A DNA stretch of 64,000 nt from an uncultured Thermoplasmata archaeon (GTDB lineage: Archaea > Thermoplasmatota > Thermoplasmata > Lutacidiplasmatales > UBA184): contig CAWJFK010000005.1 of assembly GCA_963842165.1 (NCBI GenBank), forward strand, positions 326,070-390,069, in the 5' to 3' direction. The notes beneath the pieces were generated by a model. The model worked only from the letters and a program-made list of their open reading frames with translations. It had not been told where the DNA came from and searched no databases. Below are positions 11,869 through 53,611 of the stretch, in pieces (position 1 is the first letter of the stretch; each line of letters opens with the position of its first letter). The translations under genes and the position numbers were made by a program.

Positions 11869-11953
11869 TGCGGGGAGAGGGATTTGAACCCACGAACCCC
11901 TACGGGACCAGACCCTGAATCTGGCGCCTTTGGCCAAGCTTGGCAATCCCCGC
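11869..11953 (-). tRNA. tRNA-Leu (anticodon CAG), class II with long variable arm
   Basis: The reverse complement reads GCGGGGATTGCCAAGCTTGGCCAAAGGCGCCAGATTCAGGGTCTGGTCCCGTAGGGGTTCGTGGGTTCAAATCCCTCTCCCCGCA. It has a 7-bp acceptor stem, anticodon arm CCAGA-TTCAGGG-TCTGG, a GTTCAAATC T-loop and no encoded CCA. Confidence 0.9.
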
Positions 11954-32988: not shown

Positions 32989-33871
32989 ATGGACCCGCGC
33001 CGGTTCGGTCCCGAGAGGAATCTCGTGGCCGAATCCGCCCGGCATTTCGACGTCCATCTCCACCTGTCGCAGTGGTGGCCCGACCTGCCGCGGACCGGGT
33101 ACAAGAAGGGGATGGACTACACCGTCCAAGGCCTCCTCGCCGAGATGGACGACAGCGATGTTGCCTCCGGACTCGCGATCCCGGTCTTCGAGGGGCCGAG
33201 CCCGGAGGAATCGCTCGCCGAGTCCGTGGCGAACGCCAGGGCGAGCGGGGGCCGGCTCCGTCCGGTCGCGACCGTGGACCCGACCCGTGGCCGGGAGGCC
33301 GTCGAGTCGGTCGTGCGGACCTGGGACTCGGTACCGGACCTCGCCGCGGTGAAGCTGTTCCCCGGGTACCAGGCCTTCTACCCGCACGACCCCGTGATGG
33401 CCCCGGTCTACGAGTACGCCGCCCGTCGACACCTTACCGTGATGGTCCACCAGGGCGACACGCTCTGGCCGGACGGACGGATCGAGTACGCCCGCCCGAT
33501 CGAGATGGACGAGGTCGCGGTGCAGGACCGCGAGGTCCGCTTCGTCCTGTGCCACTTGGGCAACCCGTGGGTCGAGGAGGCCGCCGAGGTCGTCTACAAG
33601 AACCGGAACGTCTACACCGACACGTCGGGCCTGCTCGCCCACCCTCAGACGCCCCACTTCGACCGGATGGTCGTCCGCGCCCGGGAGGTTCCTGCAGAAT
33701 CTGGTGGACACCATCGGTTCGCCCGAACGGATCCTCTACGGCTCGGACTGGCCGCTCGAGTCGCTGGCGATGGCCGTGTCGCTGGTCGAGGGGCTCGACC
33801 TCCCGCCGAGCGACCGGTTCGCGATCCTCGGGGGAAACGCCCGAAAGCTGTTCGGGGAGGGTCCGCCATGA
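32989..33871 (+). CDS. amidohydrolase-2 (PF04909-like) metal-dependent hydrolase (one frame change near 33690)
   Basis: 'FDVHLHL', 'VMVHQGD' and 'FVLCHLGNPW'. After the shift it reads 'ILYGSDWPLES...LGGNARKLF', ending at TGA 33869-33871, which overlaps the next ATG (ATGA). Confidence 0.7.
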
Positions 33872-35242
33872 CCGACCCAAAACGTCCCCCGCCCAAGTTC
33901 GACGGAGAAGGGATCCGGTCGATCGTTCAGGAGACGAACTACGTCACCTGGCGGCGTCAGGCGGGCTGGAATCCTCTCGTGGTGACCCGTGCCGAGGGCT
34001 CGACCTTCTGGGACGACCGGGGGAACGGGTACCTCGATTTCTCGTCCCAGCTGATGGCCACGAACCTCGGGCACTCCAACCCCGCCATCGTGGCGGCCAT
34101 CGCCGCCCAGGCCGCCCAGCTTGCGTACGCCGCCCCGGGGTTCGCGACCGAAGCGCGGGCCCGTCTCAGCTTCTCGCTCTTGGAGGTCCTCCCTTCTGGT
34201 CTGAACCGCTTCTTCTTCAGCACCTCCGGGACGGAGGCGAACGAGGCGGCGCTGAAGATCGCCCGCGCTGCGACCGGTCGGACGAAGGTCCTCTCGCGAT
34301 ACCGGTCCTACCACGGGGCCACCGCCGCCTCGATCTCGGTGACGGGGGACCCCCGCCGACGGCCGATCGAGCACCTCCAGAAGGTGCCGGGCACGGTCTT
34401 CGCGCCCGACTGCTACTGCTACCGCTGCCCGTTCGGCCTCTCGTATCCCGATTGCGGGATCGCCTGCGCGGAGTACGTGGACTACCAGATCGAGCGGGAG
34501 GGGGACGTCGCGGCGATGATCGTGGAACCGGTCGTCGGGACGAACGGGGTGATCGTCCCCGTGCCAGAATACCTCCCGATGATCCGCACGATCACGAAGA
34601 AGCACGATGTGGTGCTGATCGCCGACGAGGTGATGACCGGGTGGGGCCGCGTGGGCGAGTGGTTCGCGGTCGACCGCTGGAACGTGGTGCCGGACATCCT
34701 CACCACGGCGAAGGGGATCACCGGAGCCCACATCCCGCTCGGCCTCACGGCGACGACGGCCCGTCTGCACGACGTCTTCGCCGAGACGTACTTCCCGCAC
34801 GGCCACACCTACGAAGCCCATCCCCTCACCCTCGCTCCGGCCGTGGCCGCGATCGACGAGTACCGCCGCCTCGACCTGATCGTGAAGTCCCGGCGCGACG
34901 GAGAGGACCTTCTCGCCCGGCTTCGGGAGATCCAAGCGCGCCATCCGTCGGTCGGCGAGGTGCGGGGAATGGGACTGTTCGCGGCCATCGAGCTGGTCCG
35001 GGAATCGAGAGACCCGGACGCCGTTCAACAGCGAGGACGACAAGCTCGCCGGCCGTCTGCTCGTCGCCGAAAAGGTCGCTGCTGCGATGATGAAAGAAGG
35101 CGTGTTCTGCGTGGCGTGGATCTCCCATCTCGTGGTGGCGCCCCCGTTGATCATTACGCGCGAGGAGCTCGACCGGGGGATTGAGGCACTCGACCACGCG
35201 CTGATCGTGGCGGACCGGGAACTCCCGCCGTCGGCGCCCTAG
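33868..35242 (+). CDS. class III aminotransferase (one frame change near 35010)
   Basis: 'FSTSGTEANEAALKIAR', 'YHGAT', 'IVEPVVGTNGVIVP', 'LIADEVMTGWGRVG' and 'DILTTAKGITG' (PLP lysine). The C-terminus 'AWISHLVVAPPLIITREELD' is in the shifted frame and ends at TAG 35240-35242. Confidence 0.8.
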
Positions 35243-38336: not shown

Positions 38337-40151
38337 ATGTCGCGGCACTCGTCCCCCGGGGGCCGGACCGGCCTTGCTCGATCGACCCCGAGCTTGCTGG
38401 CAGTGCTCGCGGCGATGGCCGTCGTGGGCGCGCTGATGCTGGTCGGCATCCATCCGGGATTCGCGAAATCCGTGGTCCCAGGCTCGGCCAAGGGCGCCCT
38501 CGCCTCCAATCTCGGGGCAACACCCGCCGGATGTAGCCCTCCGCCCACCGTGGGCCTCACCGGCGCCGGTTCGACCTTGGTGTACCCCCTGATGTCCCAG
38601 TGGGCCACGGTCTACGCGGGCGGGACGTCCGTGAATTATCTATCGGTCGGGAGCGGGACCGGAATCGCCGACATTACGGCCAAGACGGTCGACTTTGGTG
38701 CCACGGACGCCCCCCTCAACCCGGCGGAGCGCGGCGCCGCTCCCGGACTCCTCACGATGCCGGAGTCGGCGGGAGGAGTGGTACCCATCTACAACGTTCC
38801 CGGCGTCCCGATACTGAATTTCAGCGGGGCGGTCCTGGCGGGGATCTACCTCGGTACCATTACCAACTGGAACAACAGCGCGCTTCAGAGCCTGAATCCC
38901 GGCGTCGTTCTGCCGAACGACAGCATCGAGGTCGTCTACCGTTCGGATGCGAGCGGGACGACGTTCATCTGGTCGAGTTACCTTTCGGCCGAGAATACGA
39001 CGTGGAGCTCGATGATCGGCAAGGGAATCTCCGTCACCTTCCCGACGGGTACGGGCGAGCCGAAGGAGAGCGGGATGGCGAGCTACGTGCAGGCCACGCC
39101 GTACACGATCGGTTACGTCGACCTGAACGCCGCACTTGACGGCGTCATCTCCTTCGGAGCGGTCCAGAATCCGGCCGGCCACTTCATCCTCGCCACCGTC
39201 AATAGCACTGCGTCGGCCCTCAAGGATGCCAACCCCACGCTCCCCTCGGGGGACGGGGACTGGTACAACGTTTCCGTTCTGAACGCGCCGGGGACGTACG
39301 ATTACCCGATCACGTCGCTCACCTATGTGCTGGTGTATCAGGACCTTAGTGCGGCGTACCCGATGTACAATCTCACCAAGGCCGAGAATCTCGCCACCTT
39401 CCTCTGGTGGATGGTGACGACCGGGCAGAACTACTCGGCCCCGCTCTACTTCGTGCCGCTGCCGCAGTCGGTCGTTCTTCACGACGAGGCGATGATCGAG
39501 TCGATGACGTTCAACGGTTCCACTATACCGGTCTGCGGAGAACCGACGCCCCCTCCGACGTACGCGGTGACTTTCGTCGAATCCGGACTGGCCTCGGGGG
39601 CGAACTGGTCGGTCACCCTCAGGGAGGCCACCAACTCGTCGACCACCGACCGAGTGTCGTTCCAGTTTCCCAACGGATCGGTGACCTACACTGTGCACCC
39701 GGTGCGCGGCTACGCGGTCAACCAGTCTACCGGTTCGGTCGACGTTCATGGAGCTCCTCGGAACGTCATCGTCGGGTTCGCTGTGGTCCCGGCGCTCTAC
39801 CCCCTGACCTTTTCCGAGAGCGGTCTCCCCGGCGGGACCAACTGGTCGGTCACTGTCGGGGGGGCGACTCACACCTCAGCCAACAGCAGCATCACATTCC
39901 AGGAATCCAACGGGTCGTACTCCTACCAGGTCGGGGCCATCACCGGGTACACCGTCTCCCCGTCCGGCGGGCCGTTGACCGTCGCCGGGGCACCAGTCCA
40001 AGTGTATCTGGAGTTCAACACCACGGGGAGTACCTCCCACGGCGCGGCCGGCGGACTTTCCGCCCTCGACTACGCGGTCATCGGGTTGGTCGTTGCCGTC
40101 TTCGCGATATTGGCGATTCTCGTCATGATGCGAAGGAAGCGGAGCGCCTGA
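38337..40151 (+). CDS. pstS: membrane-anchored PstS-like phosphate-binding protein with two C-terminal 79-aa surface repeats and C-terminal TM helix
   Basis: Intact 604-aa ORF with an N-terminal TM. PstS core 'LTGAGSTLVYPLMSQWATVY...SVGSGTGIADITAKTVDFGATDAPL...VVYRSDASGTTF...IGYVDLN'. This is followed by two 'TF.ESGL..G.NWSV' repeats and 'YAVIGLVVAVFAILAILVMM'. Confidence 0.8.
   Translation: MSRHSSPGGRTGLARSTPSLLAVLAAMAVVGALMLVGIHPGFAKSVVPGSAKGALASNLGATPAGCSPPPTVGLTGAGSTLVYPLMSQWATVYAGGTSVNYLSVGSGTGIADITAKTVDFGATDAPLNPAERGAAPGLLTMPESAGGVVPIYNVPGVPILNFSGAVLAGIYLGTITNWNNSALQSLNPGVVLPNDSIEVVYRSDASGTTFIWSSYLSAENTTWSSMIGKGISVTFPTGTGEPKESGMASYVQATPYTIGYVDLNAALDGVISFGAVQNPAGHFILATVNSTASALKDANPTLPSGDGDWYNVSVLNAPGTYDYPITSLTYVLVYQDLSAAYPMYNLTKAENLATFLWWMVTTGQNYSAPLYFVPLPQSVVLHDEAMIESMTFNGSTIPVCGEPTPPPTYAVTFVESGLASGANWSVTLREATNSSTTDRVSFQFPNGSVTYTVHPVRGYAVNQSTGSVDVHGAPRNVIVGFAVVPALYPLTFSESGLPGGTNWSVTVGGATHTSANSSITFQESNGSYSYQVGAITGYTVSPSGGPLTVAGAPVQVYLEFNTTGSTSHGAAGGLSALDYAVIGLVVAVFAILAILVMMRRKRSA
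39561..40025 (+). repeat. tandem duplication of a roughly 79-codon extracellular domain inside the PstS-like gene
   Basis: Unit 1 (39561-39797) is 'YAVTFVESGLASGANWSVTLREATNSS...GYAVNQSTGSVDVHGAP'. Unit 2 (39798-about 40025) is 'YPLTFSESGLPGGTNWSVTVGGATHTS...GYTVSPSGGPLTVAGAP'. Confidence 0.65.
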
Positions 40152-41328: not shown

Positions 41329-42525
41329 CTAGACGGAGGATCCGCAACTGTTGGGGACGGTCGCCCCGTCAAACGTGATCGTCCCGATTGTCGTCTCATC
41401 GGCCGAGACGATGTACGCCGGCAGTGGGACATAGTAGAGGGCCGCGGAGTAGTTCTGGCCGGTCGTAACGGCCCAGTAGAGGAAGTCGACCAGCCCCTCC
41501 GCCTGGTTCAGGGTGTACGACCCGCCGTACGCTCCACTCAGGTCCTGGTACACCAGCACGTAGGTGAGGGACGTGATGGGGTAGTCGTCCGCGCCGGGTG
41601 CGTTCAGGTACCGGAGACGTTGTACCAGTCGCCGTTGCCCGCGGGGAGCGTAGGGTGGACGTCGGTGAGTGCCGAAAGGGAGTTGGTCACGTTCGCTAGG
41701 ATGTAGGTACCGGCGGGGTTCTGCACCTTCCCATAGGAGATTCCCCCACTCAGGGCGTAGTTCAGGTCGACGTAGCCGAGAGTGTACTGGGTGATCTGAA
41801 CGTACCCGGCCACGCCCGCGTTCTTGGGCTCGCCCGATCCCACCGGGAAGTCCACTTCGGTGCCCTTCCCGATGTTCTTGGCCCACGTAGTGCTCTCGAG
41901 TGAGAAATAGCTGGTCCAGATGAACGTCGTGCCGCTCCCATCGGACCGGTAGACCACCTGGATGGTCTGGTCGGGGAGGCTGGCGCCCGGGTTCAGGGCT
42001 TCGAGCACGGATCGTTCCAGTGCGTGATCGTGCCCAGGTAGATCTCGGCGAGGACGGTGCCGTTGAAGTTGAGGAGTCCTGCGCCCGGAACGTTGTAGAT
42101 GGGCACTACGCCTCCGGCCGATTCCGGGACAGTGAGAGCGCCCGGTGCGGTCAGCCGCTGTGCTGGGTTCAACGGGGCATCGCTTGCGCCATAATCCACC
42201 GTCTTCCCCGAGATATCGGTGATCCCCGAGGAACTCCCCACCGAAGCGTAGTTGACGGTCGTTCCGCCCCCGTAGATGGACTCCCATTGAAACATTAGGG
42301 GGTACACGGAGAGGAACCGGCTCCCTTGAGGCTGACCCCGGCGGGCGGCTCGCAATTGGTGAGAGTTCCACCCCCAGGGGACGAGCCCTTGAACCAACCT
42401 AGGGAGTACCCCGCGAGCAATATCACGACCACGATCACCACCGCGATCGCTGCGTAGATCGGGGTCGGAGCGCGTCGTCGATCAATCGTCTCGGTTGGAG
42501 CTGATGGCGTTCCCGGAGTGGCCAT
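41329..42525 (-). CDS. pstS: second membrane-anchored PstS-like phosphate-binding protein (about 3 frame changes near 42300, 42010, 41620)
   Basis: N-terminal TM 'IYAAIAVVIVVVILLAGY'. Then 'LKGAGS', 'FLSVYPLMFQWESIY...SVGSSSGITDISGKTVDYGASDAPL', 'VVYRSDGSGTTF...LGYVDLN' and 'DDYPITSLTYVLVYQD...', spread over ORFs 42295..42525, 41993..42397, 41604..42371 and 41329..41886. Confidence 0.75.
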
Positions 42526-43747
42526 AGATTCTGTATCAGCGCAGTGGATGACGTGCGAGAAGTGACATCCGATGGACGACGGCGCCCCGCGCTTTTAAGC
42601 CGGACAGGGGGAAAGTCTCGGGCCGACAATAGTTCCCGTGAGGTTTCGTAGAATGACGGGATTTACGGAGTTCTTGGGCGAACGGTCGGCCGACGAATAT
42701 GCCGGGTTGGTGTCCCTTGGCCCTTGAACACAACGTGTCGTCCACTCGCCTCGCGCGGATCGTTCCCAGGCCCGCTCCCCACCCAGATCGGCCGCGCCCT
42801 CGCGCTGAATGGTGATCGACGGCCGCATCCTCGAAGCGTGCAGGAGCACAGGGGCCCTCGTGACACCCTGGAGTGGGTTGAGACTCCGCAGCCGGTTGGA
42901 AGAGGCGGTCGATTTGTTCCCGTTCAGGACGTGCGCATGAACGTCGTGCTTCCGCAGGCGCAGGCCGCGGGCAACACGGATTCACTCCGGAAGGGGCCGT
43001 AGATTCGGCCGCAATGAGCGCATCTCATCCGGAAGTGGTGGGTGGATCGGTGGGGGACCGACCACGAAACATCGACAATCTTCTTGTGGGTCATTCCCCT
43101 GGAACCTTAGGGCCCCCCGGGCTTCGGAGAGGGTGACCGATTCGCCCCCTCGGGTTGACAGTACGTTCGGTCGCGGTAATGAACGTGTCGAGCGAACCCA
43201 AGAATCGGAACAGAAGGGGCCCCGACCGGAGTGAGCCGCGTCTCCAATGGCCACTTGGTTCCCCAAAGACTGACGCTTGATGGCAGGGTGGGAGCATTGA
43301 GACGAGCGTCCGTCGCAGAATCCGGGAGATGGATTGGTGAGACTGCAGCCTCTCCCTTCCAAGACCCGTCCGTGGGTTATCACTCGTCGAGCGAGAGGTT
43401 TGGGGCCAACGGTGCGAGAAGGGCCGACTCCCCGAAGGAAATCTCGACGGGCTGGATGGGCCGGCCGCCGCACCGGAGGGATTACCGGCCGCCGATCCTC
43501 GCATGAAGCTTCTGTTCGCACACTCGGGGGCGATGCCGGCCGCCAGAGTTGGAGGACCTGCCATCGATTTCCGTTTCGAGTAGTTCCAACTAGCTGGGAT
43601 AAACGGGAGGTGATAACGCGCCCACACTCCTTGGCCGGCACCAAAGCTATGTGAAATCTCCGGAGCGCTCTGATACCACGTAGTGAGGCGGTACGTGGAG
43701 GGTTCTTGCGAGCACGTGAGGTCGTGGTACGGGGGAATGAAGGAGAA

Positions 43748-43769
43748 CCCCGGGGCTCTTGCCCCGGGG
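43748..43769 (-). terminator. 9-bp perfect GC hairpin just downstream of the pilin-PstS gene
   Basis: CCCCGGGGC-tctt-GCCCCGGGG lies 31-52 nt after the stop at 43800. On the coding (minus) strand it is followed by 'TTCTCCTTCATT'. Confidence 0.35.
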
Positions 43770-43799
43770 GAAGAGGTTGGAATCGTACTCGTCGCCCAC

Positions 43800-45227
43800 T
43801 TAGATCTGATAGATGCTGATCTCGTTAGCCTCGGAGGCGAAGTTCTGGTTGTTGTAGGGGTCGATGGTGAACTGCAGCAGGCGCTGAACTTCACCGGTGG
43901 GTGCGCCGAGGGTGACCCACTGGAACGGCCGCCAGCCAACGTATCCCGTCGTCGCGGTCATTGGGACCTTGATCGCCGCCGCTATGGTCCCGCTCGCTCC
44001 GAGAGACGGCTGAATGGCCACTGACTGGCCCAGCCCCTCGACTCCGATGCCGCAGGCCGCCGTCGAGACGCCCGCGCAGGAGACTCCCGAGGTCGAAACT
44101 CGGGCGAGCCCGTCCGACGCGAAGCCGAGAGCGTCGGGGTGGGACGCGACGTAGGAGATCACTCCCGGGTTGCCGAGCTGAGCGGTGGTCGTAGCGATTC
44201 CGCAGCTCCCGAGCTGACCGTCCGAGCCGCAGCCGCCCCAGTTGTTCAACATCGCGGACAGGCCAGAGACCGGGGAGTTCCCCGATCCGATGCCGAGAAT
44301 CCGCGCCGTGAAGCTCTGGACCGTCCCGCCGGGGTCGCTCCGGGTAACCGTCTGGATGTTATCAGTGGCAGCATGCCCGGCGCCTCCGCCAGCGCAGACC
44401 GTCCAGCCGCAGGTTGACGTCCCAAGTACGGTCGCCGGGGCCGCGACGATGAGGTTACCGGTCGCGGTTCCAGAGGCCGGTGTGGCCGTGAAGGTTGTGA
44501 GCGGCGCCTCGGTGACGGCCGTGCCACCGCAAGCGGTGGCGCCGTTAACGCACGCCGGAATCTGGTCCCACGCGATCGGGGTGTTCGTCGCGATGGTGAT
44601 GCCGCTGGCCGGCGCCATACCGTTGATAGTCGCGGTCCAGATACCGGTGTAGGCGCTCGTGCTGGTCGTGATGTAGATCGAGAGCACCGTGTCCCAGCTG
44701 ATGCTGTACAACCCGTGGGGGCTGGCAGCGGGGGTCGCGCCCTGGGTGATCATGTCGACGCCGTCGTAGGCCACGGTCGTGATGACCGGGACACTGTTGC
44801 CACCCAAGGGGCACGCGTAGTTCGTCTGGAGGTTCGTGATGGTCTGGAGCGCTGACGTGGCTCCGATGTCCACCGCACCCGAACAGACCGCGATCATCCC
44901 TGCCCCAGATCCGCCCTGGTTGTCGCTAATCGCGATGTCCGAGTTGTTCTGCTCGAACTGAGCCACAGCGAGCTGGTCAAACGGGTAGACGGAGGTGCTC
45001 CCCCCGATGGTCACCGTGGTCTGGGCCGACTGGCCACCGATGCCACCGGTGACACTTCCCTGCCAGGCGACCAGCCAAAGGTAGAGCGCCGCCGCGGCCG
45101 CGACCGCGATGAGAATCAAGATCAACGTCGCCACGACGGGCGAAACTGCCTTGTTGTGGTTCTCACCACGGAGGCCCCGGAGGTACCTCATCTTTCGTTC
45201 TTTCTTCGTCGCATTCATTCCGCTCAT
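43800..45227 (-). CDS. PstS/PBP-like substrate-binding protein carrying an archaeal class III (type IV prepilin-like) signal peptide
   Basis: Intact 475-aa ORF. N-terminus '...RGENHNKAVSPVVATLILILIAVAAAAALYLWLV' has the DUF361/archaeal pilin-type charged-then-hydrophobic pattern. PBP_like_2-type core 'IGGSTSVYPFDQLAVAQFEQNN...NQGGSGAGMIAVCSGAVDIGATSA...VAYDGVDMI...RSDPGGTVQSF...GVISYVASHPDALGFAS', with Cys/Thr/Gly-rich insertions. Confidence 0.75.
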   Translation of the reverse strand: MSGMNATKKERKMRYLRGLRGENHNKAVSPVVATLILILIAVAAAAALYLWLVAWQGSVTGGIGGQSAQTTVTIGGSTSVYPFDQLAVAQFEQNNSDIAISDNQGGSGAGMIAVCSGAVDIGATSALQTITNLQTNYACPLGGNSVPVITTVAYDGVDMITQGATPAASPHGLYSISWDTVLSIYITTSTSAYTGIWTATINGMAPASGITIATNTPIAWDQIPACVNGATACGGTAVTEAPLTTFTATPASGTATGNLIVAAPATVLGTSTCGWTVCAGGGAGHAATDNIQTVTRSDPGGTVQSFTARILGIGSGNSPVSGLSAMLNNWGGCGSDGQLGSCGIATTTAQLGNPGVISYVASHPDALGFASDGLARVSTSGVSCAGVSTAACGIGVEGLGQSVAIQPSLGASGTIAAAIKVPMTATTGYVGWRPFQWVTLGAPTGEVQRLLQFTIDPYNNQNFASEANEISIYQI

Positions 45228-45267
45228 CTCTCTCGTTTTTCCCCCTTGTTGGTTGTTGTTGCGAGGC

Positions 45268-45287
45268 GGTCCCCGGTTGCGGGGACC
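45268..45287. promoter_or_regulatory. perfect 8-bp-stem inverted repeat in the divergent pilin-PstS / ATPase intergenic region
   Basis: GGTCCCCG-gttg-CGGGGACC lies between the divergent starts at 45227 (-) and 45471 (+). Confidence 0.3.
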
Positions 45288-45438
45288 ACGTTGCAGCTCG
45301 GGGACGGGTCCGGGCGTTCATATTCCGGGCCAAACGAGAAGCCGTAACGCGGCGAGGATTTCGGGCCCCACGGTGGCCGGAAGAATCGTGTTGTCAAACT
45401 CGGAGGTCTACGGTAACTACGGCTTCTCCGTGCGCAGT

Positions 45439-45446
45439 CCTTTATC
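45439..45446 (+). promoter_or_regulatory. TATA-like element upstream of the secretion ATPase gene (would give a leaderless mRNA)
   Basis: 'CCTTTATC' is centred about 28 nt upstream of ATG 45471. Confidence 0.35.
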
Positions 45447-45470
45447 GCGCTTCTACGAGTTCGGGACCGA

Positions 45471-47246
45471 ATGAACACCTCCGGGGCCGCCGGCCGCTCG
45501 GCCGTGTCGACGGAGGAGCGCTCCACCTCCTCTACGACCCGGGGAAGGGGCGCTCCTCCCGCACCCAAGGACCGCGCCAGCCTCCAGAGGGCCGCACGGG
45601 CGCTCGAGGCGCGGCTGATCACACGCGCGTCGATCCCGGAGAAGGTGCTCATCCAGGCCGAGCTGGGCTACATGCGGCGCCAGCTCCTTCAAGACCGGAA
45701 ATCGGTGGATGTCACCTACCCGGTCAACCCACCGTTCGCTTTCATCCGAATCTACTTCAGCGCCAAGGATAGCGAACTCCGCTACCAAGCCCTGGAGCCG
45801 ACGCTCAAGCCACACGAGGCCGAGCAGATCGTCCAGATACGGACGAAAATGGAATCGGTGATGTCCCAGGAGGAGCTGCCCGTACACGACGGACAATCGC
45901 TCGAGGAGTCACCGGCGCTGCGGGAGTACCTTCACAAGCGTTTCCTTACGGTCCTCGACCTCTACGACATCGCCGTTCCACCGAAGCGTCAGCCGGTGCT
46001 CCTCTACTACCTCCAACGCGAGTTTGTGGGCCTCGGGCGAACGGACTGCGTGCTACGGGACCCGTTCCTGGAGGACATCAGCTGCCTGGGCCCGGAGATC
46101 CCGCTGTACGTGTTCCATCGTGTCTACGGGTCGATGAAGACCAACGTGGCCTATGGGGGCGAGATCGAGCTGAACAAGTACATCTTCCGGCTCGCCCAGA
46201 TCGCGGGCAAGCACATCTCGATCTATCAGCCCATTCTCGACGCGACGCTGCAGGATGGGAGCCGCATCAACCTCACGCTCGGCACCGAGGTTACCCGCAA
46301 GGGGTCGACGTTCTCCGTCCGGAAATTCTCCCACGACCCGGTCTCGCCGATCGACCTGCTCAAGTTCGGCTCGGTGTCCGCGTTCGAGCTCGCCTACTTC
46401 TGGACCCTGGTCGAGAACCATCGTTCGCTGCTCATCTCGGGAGGGACCGCGGCCGGGAAGACGACGTTCCTCAACGCGATCTGCATGTTCGTCCGCCCCG
46501 AGGACAAGATCGTCTCGATCGAAGACACGCCCGAGATCCAGATCGACCACCAGAACTGGATCCAATCAGTTGCCCGGACGGGCTACGGCATGGCGAGCGG
46601 GATCAGCGGCGCTTCCGGGGTTTCTGGGCTGAGCGGAAACGTCCACCGTTCGGCCGGCACCGTCACCCTCTTCGACCTCCTCGTCGCAGCGCTACGGCAA
46701 CGTCCCGAGTACGTGATCGTGGGAGAGGTCCGGGGGACCGAGTCGTTTACGCTCTTCCAGGCGATCTCGGTCGGTCACGCGTCCATGTCGACGATCCACG
46801 CCGGTTCCATCGCGGAGCTTCTTCACCGCGTCGAGAACGAGCCGATGAACATCCCCCGCGTACTCTTCCAAGCCCTGGACGCCGTCGCCTTCCCGGCGCA
46901 GGTCGTGGTGCGGAACTCCCGCGTCCGACGGATCATGGGAGTGACTGAGATCCTCGAGGTCGACAGCGTCACGAACGAGATGCTGACGAACGACGTCTTC
47001 CACTGGGAACCGGCCACGGATTCGTTCGCCTACCTGGGACGGAGCTTCGTGCTCGAGCACATCGCCGAGCGGGGCGGGAAGGACATCGACTCCCTGTTGG
47101 CGGAGATGAGGCGAAAAGAACAGTACCTCCAACTGATGGATCGCCTCAACATGACGTACTACCGCGACGTGAGCCGCACGATCGCCGCCTACTACGTCGA
47201 CCCGAAGGAAGCGGTGGCGACCCTCGAAAAACGCATCGCCGGCTGA
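45471..47246 (+). CDS. type II/IV secretion-system ATPase of the archaeal FlaI/ArlI-TadA family
   Basis: Intact 591-aa ORF with Walker A 'ISGGTAAGKTTFLNA', 'IVSIEDTPEI', Walker B/Asp box 'RQRPEYVIVGEVRG' and His box 'GHASMSTIHA'. Confidence 0.9.
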   Translation: MNTSGAAGRSAVSTEERSTSSTTRGRGAPPAPKDRASLQRAARALEARLITRASIPEKVLIQAELGYMRRQLLQDRKSVDVTYPVNPPFAFIRIYFSAKDSELRYQALEPTLKPHEAEQIVQIRTKMESVMSQEELPVHDGQSLEESPALREYLHKRFLTVLDLYDIAVPPKRQPVLLYYLQREFVGLGRTDCVLRDPFLEDISCLGPEIPLYVFHRVYGSMKTNVAYGGEIELNKYIFRLAQIAGKHISIYQPILDATLQDGSRINLTLGTEVTRKGSTFSVRKFSHDPVSPIDLLKFGSVSAFELAYFWTLVENHRSLLISGGTAAGKTTFLNAICMFVRPEDKIVSIEDTPEIQIDHQNWIQSVARTGYGMASGISGASGVSGLSGNVHRSAGTVTLFDLLVAALRQRPEYVIVGEVRGTESFTLFQAISVGHASMSTIHAGSIAELLHRVENEPMNIPRVLFQALDAVAFPAQVVVRNSRVRRIMGVTEILEVDSVTNEMLTNDVFHWEPATDSFAYLGRSFVLEHIAERGGKDIDSLLAEMRRKEQYLQLMDRLNMTYYRDVSRTIAAYYVDPKEAVATLEKRIAG

Positions 47247-47252
47247 GGCAGC

Positions 47253-48202
47253 ATGTCGACCCCGGTGAAGAGCGCCGTCGGGACCCCGACCGGGGCGGGC
47301 GAGGAGACGCCTCCCAAGCCCGCAACGCCGCTCGTCTCGAGGTATCGCACCTTCTGTTACCGGCTCTTCGGCGAACGACTCGACACGGGGGAGGGGCAGG
47401 AAGCGATCACCGAACAGCTGCAGCGGGCGGGGATGAGCGTCACGCCCGGGATGCACTACTCGGTCGAGATCGTGACCTCGGCCATCGCCGCGGCGACCGG
47501 ATTCGTCATCAGCTTGTTGCTGTTCGACCTGGTCCTCCACAGCCCGCTCTGGTACCTATTCGTCCTCGTGATCACGGTGGTCGCCGCGGGGCGACGGTCG
47601 GCGGCTTCAGTTTCCTCCTGACGTCGCGCATCGCCAATCGGAAGGACGAGTTGGAGCGGGAGCTCCCGTTCACGCTCAGTGAGTTGTCGGTGCTCGCCAG
47701 CACCGGAACCTCCCCGATCCGGCTCGTTCGTCGAATGGCCGGGCGCGACCATGACCCGGCGATGACCGCCGAGTTCAAGCGGGTGGTCTACAAGACGGAC
47801 ATCCAGGGCAAGGACCTGATCACGGCCCTCGCCGAGACGGCCAAAGAATCCGCCTCAACCTCGGTGCGGGAGTCGTTCTGGGACCTTGCCAACATGATCC
47901 ACCAGGGGGGCAACCTCGACGAGTACCTTCGAGCCAAGTCGGACGACGTGATGAAGCTCCGCCGAGGCGTGCAGGAAGAGTTCATCGAGCGCCTCACAAC
48001 CTTCCTCGACATGTACGTCAGCCTCGTCCTCACCGGCATTCTGCTGCTCGCGGTGGCCGCGTTCCTGATCAACGCCCTGGGAAGCACGGCCGCCGGGCTG
48101 AATGCGAACGAACTCCTCTTGCTCCTGACGTTCGGCCTGGTTCCCGTTTCGGTCGCCATGACGATCATTCTGATCTCGATCGCGTACGCGAGGGCCGAAT
48201 GA
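47253..48202 (+). CDS. FlaJ/TadC-type platform protein, first T2SSF-like half (one frame change near 47588)
   Basis: ORF 47253..47621 (cytoplasmic N-terminus plus TM helices) joins at a G4 run to ORF 47651..48202 ('ELPFTLSELSVLASTGTSPIRLVRRMA...' followed by TM helices). Confidence 0.75.
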
Positions 48203-49647
48203 GGGCGCGGTCCCGGTTCCTCGGTCTTCTCGGGGTGCTGCTGATTTCCGCCTTGGCCCTTCTGGCGCCGCTGGGAAACGCGCGACCCGCCCCGTCCGCC
48301 GCCGGTCCCATCCTTATCTCGGTAGTCTCCCCCACGCCGAACAGCACCGTCTATTCCAGCACCCCCACGATCGTGGCGACCTACAACGACCTCGGCCCGG
48401 GGTCGATCAATCCGTCCGCCGTGTACATGCTCGTCGACGGGCAGAACATCACCGGGATCCAAGGATTCAATGTGAGCACCACCCAGGTCAGTTACACGCC
48501 CCCGACGATCATCGCACTGAACAACAGCAATCACTCGGTCACGGTCTTGGTCTCCGATACGGCCGGACGGTCGGCGTCCCTGACGTGGAACTTTACGGTC
48601 AACACGAACGCCGCTCCCGCGCCGAACCCCCTCGCCGGACTCAAGATCACGACGGTCCTGGTCTACATGGGGGTCGGTGCGGCCATCGCGCTCGGCGCCG
48701 TGGGCGGATACATCCTCTTCCTGAGGCAGACGGCCCGATTCACGTTCCGGAGATACTTCGCGACGCATCCGGTCGAGAGGAACTATCTCGTGATCTACAT
48801 TCCCTTCGCCGTCGCCTTCGCGTTCGTCCTCGTCGGGTTGCTCTACGTGTACTCGACCCCGGGTCTGCCCAGTAACGCCGTGGATTACGTCTTCATCATC
48901 GCCGTTTTCATCGCCCTCACGCTCTGGGGCATCGATTCGCGCCGTGAGATGATGCGGATCCGCGCCTACGAGCGGGCCTTTGCCCAGCTCCTCTTCGAGA
49001 TGGCCGACGCGATGCGGGGCGGCATCGACCCCGCCAAGGCGATCGTCGAATTGTCCAAGACGCACACTAACATCCTGCGGAAGAACCTCCGAATCGCCGC
49101 CGACGGCGTTCGCCTGGGTCGCCCCTTCGACGAGGTACTCCGGGATATGGTCGCCCCGATGAGGAGCAGGCTCATCACGCGATACGCGGGGTTGATCGCC
49201 GATGCGACATCCATCGGAGGCGAAACAGCGACCGTCGTCTACCGCGCGGCCAAGGACATGGACGACTTCGTCAAGATCGAAGAAGAGCGGGAGAAGAAGC
49301 TCTACCTACCGGTCGCGGTCATCTACATCGCCTTCGGCGTGCTGACGGCCGTTCTCGTGGCGCTCCTCTTCATCGCTCCCGAGCTCGGCAGCATCAACAT
49401 CAATTTCCTCAGCTCCAGCCATCCGCTTTCCTCGGCGGGATCGGCGTCGTCGTCGTCGGTCGCACCGGTCCCCCACCTCGCGTTCTCGGCCCTGAAGGAG
49501 CGGTTCTTCGAGCTCATGCTCATCAACGCCTTGGGTACCGGCGCCATCATTGGGGCCTTCACCGAAGGGCGCGCCCGCTACGGGATCCTCCATTCCCTCG
49601 CGCTCGTGGCGGGCACGGCCATGGTCTTCGCGATCCTGTTTCCGTGA
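48199..49647 (+). CDS. FlaJ/TadC-type platform protein, second T2SSF-like half, with N-terminal signal peptide and extracellular Ig-like domain
   Basis: ATGA overlap with the upstream gene. Signal 'FLGLLGVLLISALALLAPLG'. Ig-like segment 'ILISVVSPTPNSTVYSSTPTIVATY...VDGQNITG...HSVTVLVSDTAGRSASLTWNFTVN'. Then TM helices and 'LLFEMADAMRGGIDPAKAIVELS...'. Confidence 0.75.
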   Translation: MRARSRFLGLLGVLLISALALLAPLGNARPAPSAAGPILISVVSPTPNSTVYSSTPTIVATYNDLGPGSINPSAVYMLVDGQNITGIQGFNVSTTQVSYTPPTIIALNNSNHSVTVLVSDTAGRSASLTWNFTVNTNAAPAPNPLAGLKITTVLVYMGVGAAIALGAVGGYILFLRQTARFTFRRYFATHPVERNYLVIYIPFAVAFAFVLVGLLYVYSTPGLPSNAVDYVFIIAVFIALTLWGIDSRREMMRIRAYERAFAQLLFEMADAMRGGIDPAKAIVELSKTHTNILRKNLRIAADGVRLGRPFDEVLRDMVAPMRSRLITRYAGLIADATSIGGETATVVYRAAKDMDDFVKIEEEREKKLYLPVAVIYIAFGVLTAVLVALLFIAPELGSININFLSSSHPLSSAGSASSSSVAPVPHLAFSALKERFFELMLINALGTGAIIGAFTEGRARYGILHSLALVAGTAMVFAILFP

Positions 49648-49765
49648 TCGAGGTCCGCGACGCTGGCCGTCCCCCAGTGGTAGGCCTATCGTGCCTCGCG
49701 TCAGACCCAGATGTACTGAGAGCCTGCGAAGGAGGTTTCCGCCGAGCGACAGGGACCCGCCCGAC

Positions 49766-50671
49766 CTAGGGGGTGGTGTAAACTTCGGACGCCGAGCCCG
49801 TCAGCCCTAGAGTGTTCGTCACGTTGAGGAAGATGGTGTACATCGTCAGCCGGGGTGGTCACGAACGGATGAGCCAACTGGGCCTGTTGACCGTAGTACG
49901 TGCCTCGATCGGGGTCGCTGAGCAGCGGGGTGATTACGGTCCAGACCCATTGGACGATGGCAGCATTGGGGGATGACCCCGAGTGGGGTTGGTAGGATTG
50001 GGAGCCGTCGAGGATGGGGTAACCTGTGAGGAAATTGAGTCCGATCTCCGGGACTGGGGGGAACAGGGTCTCGACAAACGTGTTCCCGAGTGTGGTGCCC
50101 AGTTGGACCTGGACGGACGTGGAGGAATACAGGAAGGGCTGGAGATAGAACGAGCTGTCGTTGATCGTGACGGCGGTGACGGAGAAGGGCGCGAGGTTCA
50201 GATAGGACGTGCCCCCGGCCACGGGAAACTCGTGGAAGTTCGCCGCGTCGCCTAGCAGCGAAACGTTACACCCGGGGTCTTCACAATAGGACTCGGCCGG
50301 ATCCCCCCCCACAGCGATGTCGGTGAGTGAAATGTTGTAGATGTCGGCAGAGGAGAGAATCAGAGTGATGTTCCCCGGGTACGTGCCGGGAACCGCCGGG
50401 GGGCCGGGGGAGGAATGACGTAGCCCGGGACGTTGGCCACACTTTGAATGGTGACGTTCTCGAGATTCTTGAGATGGAGTTGATTCTGTTCCCTGAGGTT
50501 GGTCTGCTCCTCCGACGCGACGAAGAAGGAGAATGCGGTGGCCGCGGCCACCACGATGAGGACGAGCATGAGGGTGCCGACGATCTCCGCAAGGCCGCGG
50601 CGATCCGGTCGTAGCCCTTTCCGGTCGCGCATCGGCTGTCGAGGGGGGCCTCGCGTCATAGGCCTGCCCAC
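49766..50671 (-). CDS. pilin-like protein with class III signal peptide (two frame changes near 50385 and 49855)
   Basis: N-terminus 'RKGLRPDRRGLAEIVGTLMLVLIVVAAATAFSFFV'. The body is reconstructed across ORFs 50360..50671 and 49701..50312 and ends '...RLTMYTIFLNVTNTLGLTGSASEVYTTP*' at 49766-49768. The switches are at C-runs. Confidence 0.6.
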
Positions 50672-50758
50672 CGGAGATTCCGTAGTTGGAAGGCTACTCC
50701 GTAGACTACCGGACTCTACACGCCACGTTGTTAAACGACCTAGCCTCCTGTCGAGCGC

Positions 50759-51388
50759 GTGAACATCCCCGTCGAGGTACCGGGCCTCGACACCATCATC
50801 CCGGAGATCGAGGAGGGGCGGCTGCTCGTCGTCGAGAGCGGCGCCGACTCGGCCAAGAGCTACTTCGTCCGGAGGCTGAGCCTGAGCGCCGGCCGGGTCG
50901 GATCCCCGGTGACGTTCGTAACCTCCCGGGACGAGGCGGAGGTCCGGGCGCTCCTCGCCAGCGAGGCGGACGAGGGCCAGCGCTCCGAGGGCTGGGTCCG
51001 CATCATGGAACGGGACGGGATCGAGAGCTTCGAGGAGTTCGAACCGGCGGGGGGTCTACTGACGGTCGATTCGTTCTCCTACCTGACGCTCAACCTCCCA
51101 CCGGCCGAACTGGCCTCGTCCCTCCGGCGGCTCCGGACCGCGTGTCGAACCCGGAACATGACGGCCATTCTGGCGACCGATCGAGGGATGCTGGATACCC
51201 GGTCGGAAGCGGTCGTGACCCACCTCTCCGATGGGTTCTTGCAGTTCCACGCCCGAGAAGGTCCGGAAGGGGTGCTGCGATTCCTCCGCATTCCCAAGTG
51301 GATGGATGGGAAGTTTGTCGACCGGAATATCTATTATGAGTTCGACGGCAAACGTATCATGATCGACCTGCGGCGACGGGTGCTCTAG
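50759..51388 (+). CDS. KaiC/RecA-fold FlaH(ArlH)-like protein with degenerate Walker A
   Basis: 209-aa ORF with a GTG start. 'GLDTIIPEIEEGRLLVVESGADSAKSYF' aligns to the KaiC/FlaH 'GxxGxGKS' region, but the second Gly is Ala. Confidence 0.6.
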   Translation: MNIPVEVPGLDTIIPEIEEGRLLVVESGADSAKSYFVRRLSLSAGRVGSPVTFVTSRDEAEVRALLASEADEGQRSEGWVRIMERDGIESFEEFEPAGGLLTVDSFSYLTLNLPPAELASSLRRLRTACRTRNMTAILATDRGMLDTRSEAVVTHLSDGFLQFHAREGPEGVLRFLRIPKWMDGKFVDRNIYYEFDGKRIMIDLRRRVL

Positions 51389-51401: not shown

Positions 51402-52472
51402 GTGCCGACCGGGTCCTACGAGCGCTACGGTCTCACCAGCAACCCGTTCCGGGATCTGGCGAGCGAGAGCCTCGAGGACGTGAGCCTCTACCACGTCAAC
51501 CAGGAAGTGGACGAGACCCTTCGGACGATCAAGGACGAAGTCTACGACAAAGAGAACCGGGCCGTCGTGGCCATCGTCGGCCCTCACGGGGCCGGAAAGA
51601 CCGAACGGCTCCTGGTCACCGCGGCGGAGGCCAAAGAGCATGGCGCGTTCGCGGTGTACTACGACGTGCCCGCCAAGACGGCCAAGGTCCTCCGGGGCGT
51701 GGCCACCCAGTTCCAGGCGGCGGCCGCCGCCCGGACCAAGGGTAAGCTGTTCGCTTCCCAACCCCCTTGGGTCAAGGCGATGGCGTCGCTCGCCAAGATC
51801 GGCGACGAGAAGTACGACCCCAAGGACGCCGGCAGAATCGTCGGACAAGCGCTCAACGGCACCGCCCCCTCCTTCCTGCTGCTAAACGACCTGAACAACC
51901 TCATCGCGTCGAAGGAGGTCGACGCGTTCGCGAAGGTGATCCAGGAGATCACCGACACGATCAAGCCCGGCGTCCTCCTCATGTTCACCTGCTATCCGAG
52001 CTATCTCGCGTGGCTCACCGTCAACCATCCGGCCCTCTCCTCTCGCATCAACCGCTCGCTCACGTTGGCCGGGTTCAGCGACGAGGAGGCCGCCCTCCTC
52101 CTCGCGAAGAAGCTCTTGGTCAAGCGCCTGGTCGAGGACCTCGACCCGATCTACCCGTTCGACCGGGAAGCGATCCACCTGCTCAACCAGGCGGCCTTGT
52201 CGAACCCGCGACGACTGCTCGAATTGGCCGACCTCGCCGTCGAGTATGGCGCTGCTCACCGGTCCTATCGGGTGGACGCGGAGGTCGCGAACGCGGTGAT
52301 CGGCCAACGAGCCGCGAGCGTGGCCGCGAACACCGCATCGGCCAAGGCGAGCGCCGGGATCGGTCCCCCCCGCGGCCCCCGCCCTGCGGACGAAGGCGAT
52401 GGGCGCGCCGGCAGCCCCAGACACGAAGGGTGGCTGGGCCGAGAGCTAGCACCTACGCCGGCGCGGGCGTGA
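51402..52472 (+). CDS. AAA+/P-loop ATPase, ExeA(GspA)/AAA_22-like
   Basis: N-terminal 'YGLTSNPF' motif and Walker A 'IVGPHGAGKTE'. 356 aa, GTG start, with a disordered Gly/Pro/Arg-rich tail. Confidence 0.6.
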   Translation: MPTGSYERYGLTSNPFRDLASESLEDVSLYHVNQEVDETLRTIKDEVYDKENRAVVAIVGPHGAGKTERLLVTAAEAKEHGAFAVYYDVPAKTAKVLRGVATQFQAAAAARTKGKLFASQPPWVKAMASLAKIGDEKYDPKDAGRIVGQALNGTAPSFLLLNDLNNLIASKEVDAFAKVIQEITDTIKPGVLLMFTCYPSYLAWLTVNHPALSSRINRSLTLAGFSDEEAALLLAKKLLVKRLVEDLDPIYPFDREAIHLLNQAALSNPRRLLELADLAVEYGAAHRSYRVDAEVANAVIGQRAASVAANTASAKASAGIGPPRGPRPADEGDGRAGSPRHEGWLGRELAPTPARA

Positions 52473-53469
52473 GCAGGACCGAGAGGTCGATCGCCTGCTC
52501 GGCGATCTCGGAGGCGTAGCCCGCGGTCCGGCCGAGGCTGTCCACGATCGTGCCCAGGGCCAGGAGTTCCTCACCCCGCTTGGTCGACACCCGGTGCGAG
52601 AGGGAATCGATCAGCTTCTTGTGCTCGCCTTCCGCGTCGATCGCCTGATTCGCGGCGTCGATGTCCCGCGTGATGAGGGCCGTGAACGCTCGATCGAGGA
52701 GGTTGACCGCCGACGCGCGCGCTTCGTCGATCTCCTTCGCGAGCTTGGGGTCGAGCGGCTTTCCGCCGCTCAGTGCTGGGTAGGTCGCGGCGATGCGTTT
52801 CGCGTGGTCGCCGATGCGCTCGATGAGCTTCGCGATGAGCCGGTGCGCGTGGATCGCCAGCGAGTTTCCTCCGTTGCCCTGCGGCTGGGGGGAGGAATGC
52901 GCGAGGTGGTACTGCTTCGAGATCATCCAGAAGAGCCGGCTGACGTCCTGGCTGCGGAGCGCGACATCGTTGGCGAGGCTCTCGTTCCCCGTTTCGATCG
53001 CGGTCACGGCGTCCTCCAGCATCGCGCGCACGGTGAGGTGCATCCGACGCAGACACTTGTCCGAACTCAGCTCCGACGGGTCGGAGAGGTCCTGGATCAC
53101 GATGGAGTTCTTCGCCTCTTCGATCACCTCCGGTCCGATCACGAGCCGACAGAATTCCCGGGAGACCCGACGGACGAAGGGCGCGCGGTCCGGCGAGAAC
53201 CGGATCTCGATGAGGCCGAATCCGGAGGTGTAGGCGCCGATGAGCTTGCGCAGGAGATGGTCCCGCTCCTCCTCGCCTCGCTCCTGGAAGAGCATCCGCC
53301 GGTCGGCGGGCTTCTCCCCCGCCCGAGGCCGCACCGAAACCGAGCCGTCCGTCTCGGTTTCGACGAAGAGCGTGTCCCCGGCCTTGAGGCCAGCGTGGAT
53401 CACCCAACGTTTCGGCAGGGAGACAAGATAGGTCGACTTGCCGGCGAGCTGGAGTTTCCGTCCCTCCAT
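52453..53469 (-). CDS. phoU: AbrB/SpoVT-domain plus PhoU-domain phosphate-uptake regulator (archaeal type)
   Basis: Intact 338-aa ORF. It has an N-terminal swapped-hairpin 'KSTYLVSLPKRWVIHAGLKAGDTLFVETETDGSVSV' and two PhoU repeats ('IERIGDHAKRIA', 'LGRTAGYASEIAEQA'). Confidence 0.85.
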   Translation of the reverse strand: MEGRKLQLAGKSTYLVSLPKRWVIHAGLKAGDTLFVETETDGSVSVRPRAGEKPADRRMLFQERGEEERDHLLRKLIGAYTSGFGLIEIRFSPDRAPFVRRVSREFCRLVIGPEVIEEAKNSIVIQDLSDPSELSSDKCLRRMHLTVRAMLEDAVTAIETGNESLANDVALRSQDVSRLFWMISKQYHLAHSSPQPQGNGGNSLAIHAHRLIAKLIERIGDHAKRIAATYPALSGGKPLDPKLAKEIDEARASAVNLLDRAFTALITRDIDAANQAIDAEGEHKKLIDSLSHRVSTKRGEELLALGTIVDSLGRTAGYASEIAEQAIDLSVLLTPAPA

Positions 53470-53516
53470 GCAACGGCCTTCGACAACTCAGAGCTTGTCG
53501 GCAGATAAGCGAAATA

Positions 53517-53531
53517 TACATAGGCTATGTA
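53517..53531. promoter_or_regulatory. 15-bp perfect palindrome abutting a TATA-like element in the phoU-like / trxR-like divergent region
   Basis: TACATAG-G-CTATGTA. The adjacent 'AAATATA' (53512-53518) reads as TATATTT on the phoU strand, about 45 nt upstream of its ATG. Confidence 0.4.
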
Positions 53532-53611
53532 CAAAGTGGGAGCAAGCCGTACTATTGCGCTCCATAGGGTCGGTGCGGTCCGCGGCGACGCCCATCAAAT
53601 CCTGAGCCGCG

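Follow-up and report, generated by a model that had tools for sequence, protein, structure and literature searches.

Within a 64,000-nucleotide stretch of DNA from an uncultured Thermoplasmata archaeon (GTDB lineage Lutacidiplasmatales; UBA184; GenBank assembly GCA_963842165.1, contig CAWJFK010000005.1, positions 326,070 to 390,069 of the forward strand), hereafter the window, lies a gene that joins an N-terminal helix like that of an archaeal type IV pilin to a predicted phosphate-binding domain of the PstS type. We call it the PBP-pilin gene, PBP standing for periplasmic binding protein. It sits beside the genes of a type IV filament (TFF) assembly machine, and the reading that we favour, as somewhat probable, is that the two work together to place a phosphate-binding protein outside the cell. 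The GC content of the window is about 68%. The gene and its parts are:

43800 to 45227, minus strand: PBP-pilin gene, 475 amino acids, comprising a class III signal peptide, an N-terminal helix and an S-type PstS domain
45147 to 45227, minus strand: leader peptide, residues 1-27, K/R-rich, with prepilin-peptidase cleavage predicted after K26-A27 and before V28
45036 to 45146, minus strand: hydrophobic pilin-type helix, residues 28-64 (VSPVVATLILILIAVAAAAALYLWLVAWQG...), from alignment, the AlphaFold2 model and the match to Iho670
43803 to 45032, minus strand: S-type PstS-like binding domain, residues 66-475, with insertions and five Cys pairs, from Foldseek, profile and conservation analyses

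An earlier reading of this DNA, made from its letters and open reading frames (the sequence-only reading), had interpreted the gene as a pilin-like end fused to a PstS-like remainder. The open reading frame (ORF) is found at exactly 43800 to 45227 on the minus strand, and every block quoted from it is there (GGSTSVYPF at residues 75-83, GGSGAGMIAVCSGAVDIGATS at 105-125, RSDPGGTVQSF at 296-306 and ISYVASHPDALGFAS at 357-371). A purine-rich, Shine-Dalgarno-like AAGGGGGAAAAA lies 5' of the gene at 45236-45247. We considered a downstream start that would remove the helix and rejected it, as the next Met after M13 is M111, within a conserved PBP block; conservation of the helix at the protein level (below) also rules it out. 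The start codon, the fold and the N-termini of homologues were each checked, and on all three counts the two-part interpretation holds. The mature protein is rich in Ala, Gly, Thr and Ser and has just one Lys and five Arg.

A database search returned 320 homologues of PBP-pilin. Those that are named all come from 'Thermoplasmata archaeon' metagenome-assembled genomes (MAGs), and their source labels often read 'flagellin-like protein' or 'phosphate ABC substrate-binding protein' (ABC, ATP-binding cassette). MAG names at the related loci include AcS acid-soil bins, UBA184 and 'Candidatus Lutacidiplasmatales', and these names and the GC content together point to the Lutacidiplasmatales/TMEG lineage for the window.

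At the N-terminus there is a predicted archaeal class III (prepilin) motif, in which KA, with K at -2 and A at -1 of the putative cleavage site, is followed by VSPVVATLILILIAVAAAAALYLWL. Residues 25-53 match TIGR02537, the NCBIfam model of the archaellin/type IV pilin N-terminal domain, at 34 bits (cutoff 20, E 1.5e-8), and in the PDB alignment V28 falls on residue 1 of mature Iho670, with 20 of 25 residues (80%) identical. These matches and the K and A at the cleavage site bear out the pilin-like N-terminus that had been proposed. The leader is charged, as described, but at 27 amino acids it is long for a class III signal peptide rather than short. In an alignment of 30 sequences, whose members are 49-71% identical overall, residues S29-L52 are invariant and the leader is variable yet K/R-rich; the helix is likewise invariant in 117 homologues of 45-70% overall identity. 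Every one of the 120 close homologues keeps it, the four apparent exceptions being truncated gene calls that start 'MSPVVATL' or 'VSPVVATL'. The residues at -2/-1 are mostly KA, RA or KG (KA, RA, KG or RG in 140 of 224). As a control, we examined the N-terminal transmembrane (TM) anchors of D-type PstS paralogues from related loci, which vary freely, and the helix of PBP-pilin is thus constrained well beyond what holds for a membrane anchor. Such conservation is the pattern expected of a predicted peptidase substrate whose helix would pack in a polymer.

Another way to view the N-terminus, whether cleaved or not, is as a simple tether for a binding protein of an ABC transporter, with the neighbouring pilus genes building an unrelated adhesion pilus. 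Archaea commonly tether binding proteins by a TM segment, as both neighbouring PstS paralogues do, distant homologues have the same domain on a TM segment and repeat stalk, orphan copies of the gene lie away from TFF genes (for example L026), and the locus has a conventional pilin of its own (pilin2, below). However, a tether does not readily account for some 25 residues that stay invariant in a protein otherwise diverged to 45% identity, when the anchors of D-type PstS proteins vary.

A wider set of pilin-PstS fusions (P0174-P0265) is shorter, at about 330-420 amino acids, and is without the large insertions described below; the pilin helices of this set are related but different, with for example KA followed by VSPIIATLMLVLIAV. 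These shorter proteins suggest that the pilin-PstS fusion is older and broader than the PBP-pilin family.

For the remainder of the protein, PF12849 (Pfam PBP_like_2) matches just above its cutoff of 27, at 27.8 bits, and the N-terminal lobe is matched by PstS-family models. We built an AlphaFold2 model on the 30-sequence alignment (predicted local distance difference test, pLDDT, 73.6; predicted template modelling score, pTM, 0.72), which has a 35-residue N-terminal helix (30-64) followed by an alpha/beta domain. The top 48 matches to this model in a Foldseek search of the PDB are all phosphate-binding proteins, at probability 1.0, and a profile of the family aligns to four PstS blocks across both lobes (4q8r, 4gd5 and 9l8j). 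Consistent with the sequence-only reading, which had asked for a structure prediction, the Foldseek matches and the four-block alignment give a type II PBP/PstS fold.

In the predicted site, Ser replaces the classical Asp (D56 of Escherichia coli). Loss of the phosphate site through this replacement was considered and ruled out, since Ser defines the phosphate-binding S-type PstS. In S-type PstS, with Ser for Asp, phosphate is bound without a low-barrier hydrogen bond and less selectively, and SphX, an S-type protein, has micromolar affinity for phosphate (PMC13614923; PMC5381212). The phosphate ligands of Clostridium perfringens PBP-1 are S11, T12, S13, S41, S59, R125, S129, G130 and T131 (PMC5381212), which by profile alignment are predicted to correspond to S77, T78, S79, S107, S125, R296, G300, G301 and T302. 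Phosphate-coordinating residues had been named as a check; of the nine PBP-1 ligands, eight are present in the window's protein and all nine in 109 of 117 homologues. Mapped ligand and triad positions are kept in 115-117 of the 117; position 300 is Ser in 109 of them and Gly in the window's protein. The triad is the Asp-Arg-Thr/Ser triad of S-type proteins described in PMC13614923, of which Asp and Arg fall on invariant D155 (AYD) and R433 (WRPF), and Thr/Ser on the invariant GGSTS block (S77-T78-S79). The binding site is that of an S-type PstS, and the predicted phosphate ligands are conserved family-wide.

The insertions in the domain are large, variable and rich in Thr, Gly and Ala. They bear Cys, as had been claimed, but the number is 10 rather than about 12. 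Pairs 115/139 and 333/342 occur in 117 of 117 proteins and 273/278 in 113, pairs 226/233 and 384/392 are each either both present or both absent, and the Cys count is even in 111 of 117. This co-variation of neighbouring Cys as pairs, together with the even counts, supports the earlier suggestion of extracellular disulfides.

Large, variable, probably disulfide-bonded insertions, and a mature part with only 6 Lys plus Arg, are also what would be expected of an exposed surface protein in acid soil. They would suit an adhesive or structural pilin, in which the PstS fold serves as a pilus head for attachment (to phosphate minerals or anionic polymers) and feeds no transporter. In favour of this role, the helix differs little from the one in the Iho670 adhesion filament, pstCAB is not adjacent at most loci, and bacterial modular pilins with adhesive modules are known. 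However, conserved ligands of a buried, dehydrated phosphate site fit the capture of free phosphate better, and a PhoU-domain regulator (at 32 of 33 loci) and pstS(-CA) neighbours, found in several genomes and in Nitrososphaerales, also count against a purely adhesive role. We regard it as quite improbable.

Beside the PBP-pilin gene lies the following set of genes and promoter regions:

45228 to 45470, no strand: divergent promoter region between the PBP-pilin and ATPase genes, 243 bp, conserved in length and boxes
45471 to 47246, plus strand: type IV filament assembly ATPase, FlaI/PilB3-like, 591 amino acids, Walker A GGTAAGKTT (PF00437, 116 bits)
47253 to 48202, plus strand: platform protein a, T2SSF/FlaJ-like (PF00482), with a frameshift at a G-run near 47588
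48199 to 49647, plus strand: platform protein b, T2SSF/FlaJ-like, 482 amino acids (PF00482 at residues 267-390)
49701 to 50671, minus strand: pilin2, a second class III signal peptide protein (DRRG followed by LAEIVGTLMLVLIVVAAATAF...), split into 50360-50671 and 49701-50312
50672 to 50758, no strand: divergent promoter region between the pilin2 and KaiC-like genes, CCGTAG repeats at 50680-50704
50759 to 51388, plus strand: KaiC/RecA-like small ATPase-fold protein, DUF7125-type, 209 amino acids (PF06745, 33 bits)
51402 to 52472, plus strand: AAA_22-like P-loop protein, 356 amino acids (PF13401, weak match)
52453 to 53469, minus strand: AbrB/MazE-type DNA-binding domain fused to PhoU, 338 amino acids (PF01895, 78.6 bits; PF04014, 30.6 bits)

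The sequence-only reading thus had the architecture of PBP-pilin right but overlooked its S-type signature, the conserved TFF locus with its second pilin, and the PhoU-type regulator.

The ATPase gene is transcribed divergently from the PBP-pilin gene, and its product scores 386 bits with the FlaI model (cutoff 550) and 165 bits with the BasE model, with weak PilB3_N- and PilB3_C-like matches. An archaellum was rejected on the FlaI score, which lies below the cutoff, and no further archaellum-specific family was found among the locus proteins scanned. The Lutacidiplasmatales genome paper gives about 69% GC and a lack of archaellum genes, and mentions neither pili nor PstS (PMC9287336).

Platform gene a carries a one-base frameshift, such that a 316-amino-acid homologue aligns across two frames, and its homologues are single ORFs of 316-317 amino acids. 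A split of this gene is seen in one long-read assembly (L003) too, but the Joint Genome Institute copy (L002) is intact, a difference that points to assembly indels. The N-terminus of platform protein b is hydrophobic, and before the T2SSF domain there is a long stretch that we read by eye as an extracellular immunoglobulin-like (Ig-like) domain; the Nitrososphaerales counterpart of the protein, also judged by eye, has an extra C-terminal stretch instead.

The N-terminal fragment of pilin2 (50360-50671; RRG followed by LAEIVGTLMLVLIVV...) passes TIGR02537 at 23 bits (cutoff 20), and intact homologues of 260-300 amino acids stand at the same position in 41 loci. An AlphaFold2 model of pilin2 (pLDDT 91.4) has a 44-residue helix and two beta-sandwich (Ig-like) domains, and its best match by template modelling score (TM-score) is the archaeal type IV pilus of Pyrobaculum (8fk7, 0.66). 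In some loci the pilin2 counterpart is about 900 amino acids long, with PKD-like repeats (L004). DUF7125 is found at homologous loci for the KaiC-like gene.

In comparing related genomes, we counted the ATPase over distinct loci with enough upstream sequence and the other genes over loci with 9 kb upstream. A divergent ATPase gene lies within 1.5 kb of the PBP-pilin gene at 45 of 53 distinct loci. Both platform genes (a and b) and the KaiC-like and AAA_22 genes are present at 33 of 33 full loci, and the PhoU gene at 32 of 33. The loci without a divergent ATPase are the Nitrososphaerales loci and extra orphan copies, of which L026, from the same MAG as L013, sits among unrelated housekeeping genes. 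The Nitrososphaerales locus L065 (2209-12341) has a collinear run of PBP-pilin, ATPase, platform a, platform b, one unidentified gene, KaiC-like, pilin2 and a D-type PstS. Some 45 genomes of soil Thermoplasmata have the module, as do Nitrososphaerales, and the locus is conserved in two archaeal phyla, which suggests either that it is ancient or that it has passed by horizontal transfer between archaea living together in acid soil. Low-GC Nitrososphaerales versions of the module are also seen at L064, L066, L067 and L069. If the N-terminus were only a tether, there would be little to explain the adjacency of the ATPase at 45 of 53 loci or its recurrence, in a different gene order, in Nitrososphaerales.

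The divergent region between the PBP-pilin and ATPase genes is about 230-255 bp long in most of about 45 loci. A TATA-like box for the ATPase lies at 45440-45446, an element about 26-31 nt 5' of the ATPase start, and a triple repeat CACGGAG-N-CCGTAG-N-CCGTAG (CACGGAGAAGCCGTAGTTACCGTAG) lies at 45408-45432. On the other side, TACGGCTTCTCGTTTGG at 45330-45346 is immediately upstream of a second TATA-like box, AATATGAA, at 45317-45324. These boxes are conserved in other loci, where the TACGG/CCGTAG repeats between the pilin2 and KaiC-like genes are kept too. The pattern CCGTAG-N3-20-CCGTAG has 2 matches in the 64 kb, against 0.09 expected, one in each divergent promoter region of the locus, and searches with long operator patterns gave chance-level matches only elsewhere in the window.

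Because the CCGTAG/TACGG repeats are common to both divergent regions, the four transcription units look co-regulated. The repeats are probably the operator of a locus-specific regulator, and the AbrB-PhoU protein would be the obvious candidate for regulating the four units. Operator-like repeats common to the promoters of the binding protein, the ATPase, pilin2 and the KaiC-like protein are a further argument against a binding protein that is merely tethered, and we consider such a tether rather unlikely. Upstream of the AbrB-PhoU gene (53490-53560) there is a perfect inverted repeat, TACATAG-G-CTATGTA, which may be an autoregulatory site.

The 5' untranslated region (5'UTR) of the PBP-pilin gene has a stem-loop at 45268-45287 (GGTCCCCG-CAAC-CGGGGACC), which keeps a fixed place in the window and in 36 related loci, with a sequence that varies between loci. 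Single-sequence folding gave a mean z of -1.9, with z < -2 in 15 of 37 sequences. RNAalifold on the unaligned 5'UTRs, an alignment that is not structure-aware, gave no consensus structure.

Conservation of the KaiC-like, AAA_22 and AbrB-PhoU genes in the locus, and the part that bacterial PstS and PhoU are known to take in Pho signalling, would also suit a sensor, whose PstS domain at the surface would signal outside phosphate to the cell by way of the platform, KaiC-like, AAA or PhoU proteins and would not supply it. However, the locus is without a signalling domain or two-component gene, and a sensor would have no need of a dedicated ATPase for secretion, of two platform proteins or of another pilin. 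We hold this to be very improbable.

The neighbouring PstS paralogues are:

38337 to 40151, plus strand: canonical D-type PstS (GATDAP; TIGR00975 287 bits, cutoff 205)
41341 to 42525, minus strand: second PstS paralogue, with an N-terminal TM segment, found as tblastn pieces in frames -2/-1/-3/-2

The sequence-only reading had given both of them ordinary TM anchors. The first is intact, with an N-terminal hydrophobic segment and, after C-terminal repeats that we read by eye as two beta-sandwich domains, a C-terminal TM anchor, but the second is broken by three frameshifts, which mark either a pseudogene or a series of assembly errors. TCGTAG/TTACGG-like sequences upstream of the second, at about 42640-42670, resemble the operator repeats of the locus. 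In distant TM-anchored homologues of PBP-pilin (P0132, P0135, P0140, P0142, P0144 and P0147), a TM segment followed by between one and six 'FxESGLPxGTxWxV' repeats precedes the Cys-rich PstS-like domain; this repeat also makes up the C-terminal stalk of the PstS at 38337-40151.

In four distinct Thermoplasmata genomes pstS-pstC-pstA lies directly downstream of the PBP-pilin gene, and in several others, this window included, pstS alone follows it. Between the PBP-pilin stop and the second PstS paralogue (42526-43799, about 1.27 kb) there is no convincing ORF, and Rfam (at gathering and E-value thresholds), a tRNA search and blastn/tblastx against related loci gave nothing. Elsewhere in the window, an ORF at 32989-35184 on the plus strand joins Amidohydro_2 and Aminotran_3, which are two adjacent genes in L004, and may be a fusion or an indel artefact; at about 31-38 kb the window shows synteny with L004 over an aminotransferase/aldehyde dehydrogenase cluster. 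The sole RNA gene detected in the window is a tRNA-Leu (CAG) at 11869-11953 on the minus strand.

Taking as given the sequence anatomy, the fold, the conserved ligands, a locus kept in two phyla and the common cis-elements, all of which are observed, we think it fairly likely that the locus encodes a bindosome-like phosphate system, in which an S-type PstS on a pilin helix is assembled by the adjacent TFF machine under common regulation. Leader cleavage, assembly, phosphate binding, hand-off to a transporter and the identity of the regulator are the parts that we infer, as follows. Sec would insert the precursor, and a prepilin peptidase of the PibD/FlaK type would cut off the 27-amino-acid leader, between A27 and V28. 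Extraction of the exposed helix (VSPVVATLILILIAVAAAAALYLWL) from the membrane would then fall to the FlaI/PilB-type ATPase and the two-part platform. The helix would pack with others of its kind, with or without pilin2, to give a filament or a short oligomer associated with the envelope (a 'bindosome'). The assembled structure would hold disulfide-stabilised, low-charge S-type PstS domains outside the cell, where they would capture phosphate through the Ser/Thr/Arg site typical of S-type proteins. Phosphate would be passed on to a membrane-anchored D-type PstS or a PstCA(B) transporter. The four transcription units are probably switched together, perhaps by the AbrB-PhoU protein responding to phosphate.

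Several observations weigh against the bindosome-like system. The Pfam match of the binding domain is marginal, and the curated PstS cutoffs are missed by a wide distance (TIGR02136, 50.8 against 206.6 bits; TIGR00975, 28.3 against 205), scores that point to a divergent relative of PstS rather than an equivalog. The AlphaFold2 model is of moderate quality, with pLDDT below 50 in the loops at 105-113 and 117-123, which bear or adjoin the ligands S107 and S125, and its target-normalised TM-scores to PstS structures are 0.55-0.65. At 45 kDa, the head would be a large one among major pilins. In some distant homologues the binding domain follows an ordinary TM segment and repeat stalk in place of a pilin helix, so that what counts may be display and not polymerisation. 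No recognisable prepilin peptidase was found in the window, where a search for the GxGD motif gave junk frames only, and no pstC, pstA or pstB lies within it; most related loci are also without an adjacent transporter. The frameshifts in platform gene a and pilin2 are either assembly errors or signs of a decaying system. Finally, even in Sulfolobus no filament form of the bindosome has been observed (PMC2910488).

A stronger form of this proposal, which we consider possible but doubtful, is that the locus makes a phosphate-regulated, nutrient-harvesting pilus, whose subunits, or a regular fraction of them, are functional S-type PstS proteins, serving as a phosphate antenna or mineral adhesin in acid soil and built by a dedicated TFF module common to Thermoplasmata and Nitrososphaerales. 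If true, it would be the first TFF devoted mainly to capturing an inorganic nutrient, and would serve as a genetically compact model of the still hypothetical bindosome. Binding proteins with prepilin signals have been known in Sulfolobus for twenty years, and the locus bears on their arrangement on the cell and on a use of such signals for other nutrients among archaea. Here one locus ties a binding protein to an assembly ATPase, a platform, a companion pilin and a regulator of the PhoU type, with operator-like repeats in common. It would thus be a compact system in which to test the 'functionalised pilus / bindosome' hypothesis of a 2026 preprint (below), which it would extend from sugars to phosphate, and it suggests how abundant uncultured archaea of acid soils may compete for scarce phosphate.

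Among known systems, the S-type PstS proteins (C. perfringens PBP-1, 4q8r and 4gd5; Synechocystis SphX and Sll0540, 9l8j; Vibrio cholerae 1twy) have the same fold and are the best structural and sequence matches. They share with PBP-pilin the Ser in place of the low-barrier-hydrogen-bond Asp and the GSTS, G(S/T)xAG, RxDxSGT, AYD and RPF residues. PBP-pilin differs in having about 160-200 extra residues in Cys-paired insertions, and a pilin N-terminus in place of their lipoprotein or Sec signal.

For the N-terminus, the closest comparison is with the Iho670 adhesion filament of Ignicoccus hospitalis (5kyh, 3j1r), whose mature N-terminal 25 residues are 80% identical (VSPV(I/V)ATL(L/I)LILIAVAAA..LY.W). 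The matching segment forms the filament core in Iho670. However, the Iho670 head is unrelated to PBPs, its function is adhesion, and its host belongs to another phylum. Archaeal type IV pili (Pyrobaculum calidifontis 8fk7; Haloferax PilB3/PilC3) resemble this locus, weakly in the ATPase and also in the architecture of pilin2, but no transporter-type binding domain is known on their pilins. In bacteria, the modular type IV pilins PilB and PilC of Streptococcus sanguinis likewise have a functional globular module grafted onto a pilin N-terminus; these are class III pilins whose modules are adhesive (vWA, lectin) and not nutrient-binding.

The bindosome of Sulfolobus (Saccharolobus) solfataricus (GlcS/AraS/TreS) also joins a transporter-type binding protein to a prepilin-type signal peptide and helix. 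The sugar-binding proteins of Sulfolobus bear class III signal peptides, undergo processing by PibD and depend on BasEF for their function (PMC2910488), and there, as is proposed here, a FlaI/FlaJ-type ATPase, a membrane protein and pilin-like helpers are implicated in placement in the envelope (PMC2910488; 2026 preprint). The preprint finds 4364 binding proteins that bear signal peptides of class III across archaea and puts forward 'functionalised TFF machineries'; the genes it describes are usually beside ABC transporters and not TFF loci, and it mentions neither phosphate nor PstS. In the literature we found no description linking PstS to a class III signal peptide, or a bindosome to phosphate.

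There are several differences from the Sulfolobus system. The bindosome binds sugar, in Sulfolobales, whereas the PBP-pilin domain is of the PstS (phosphate) type, in soil Thermoplasmata; the genes for its binding proteins lie with their ABC transporter, whereas the PBP-pilin gene lies inside a TFF locus. The locus ATPase and platform are not orthologues of BasE and BasF (165 against 1000 bits and 18.6 against 1300), only the T2SSE and T2SSF superfamilies being shared, and the platform is split here into two genes. Where the bindosome has three small proteins, BasABC, this locus has one non-homologous pilin of 260-300 amino acids with two Ig-like domains, and the KaiC-like, AAA and AbrB-PhoU genes are extra to it. 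Thus, what is new relative to Sulfolobus is another ligand class, another phylum, and the place of the binding protein inside a dedicated TFF locus that looks co-regulated.

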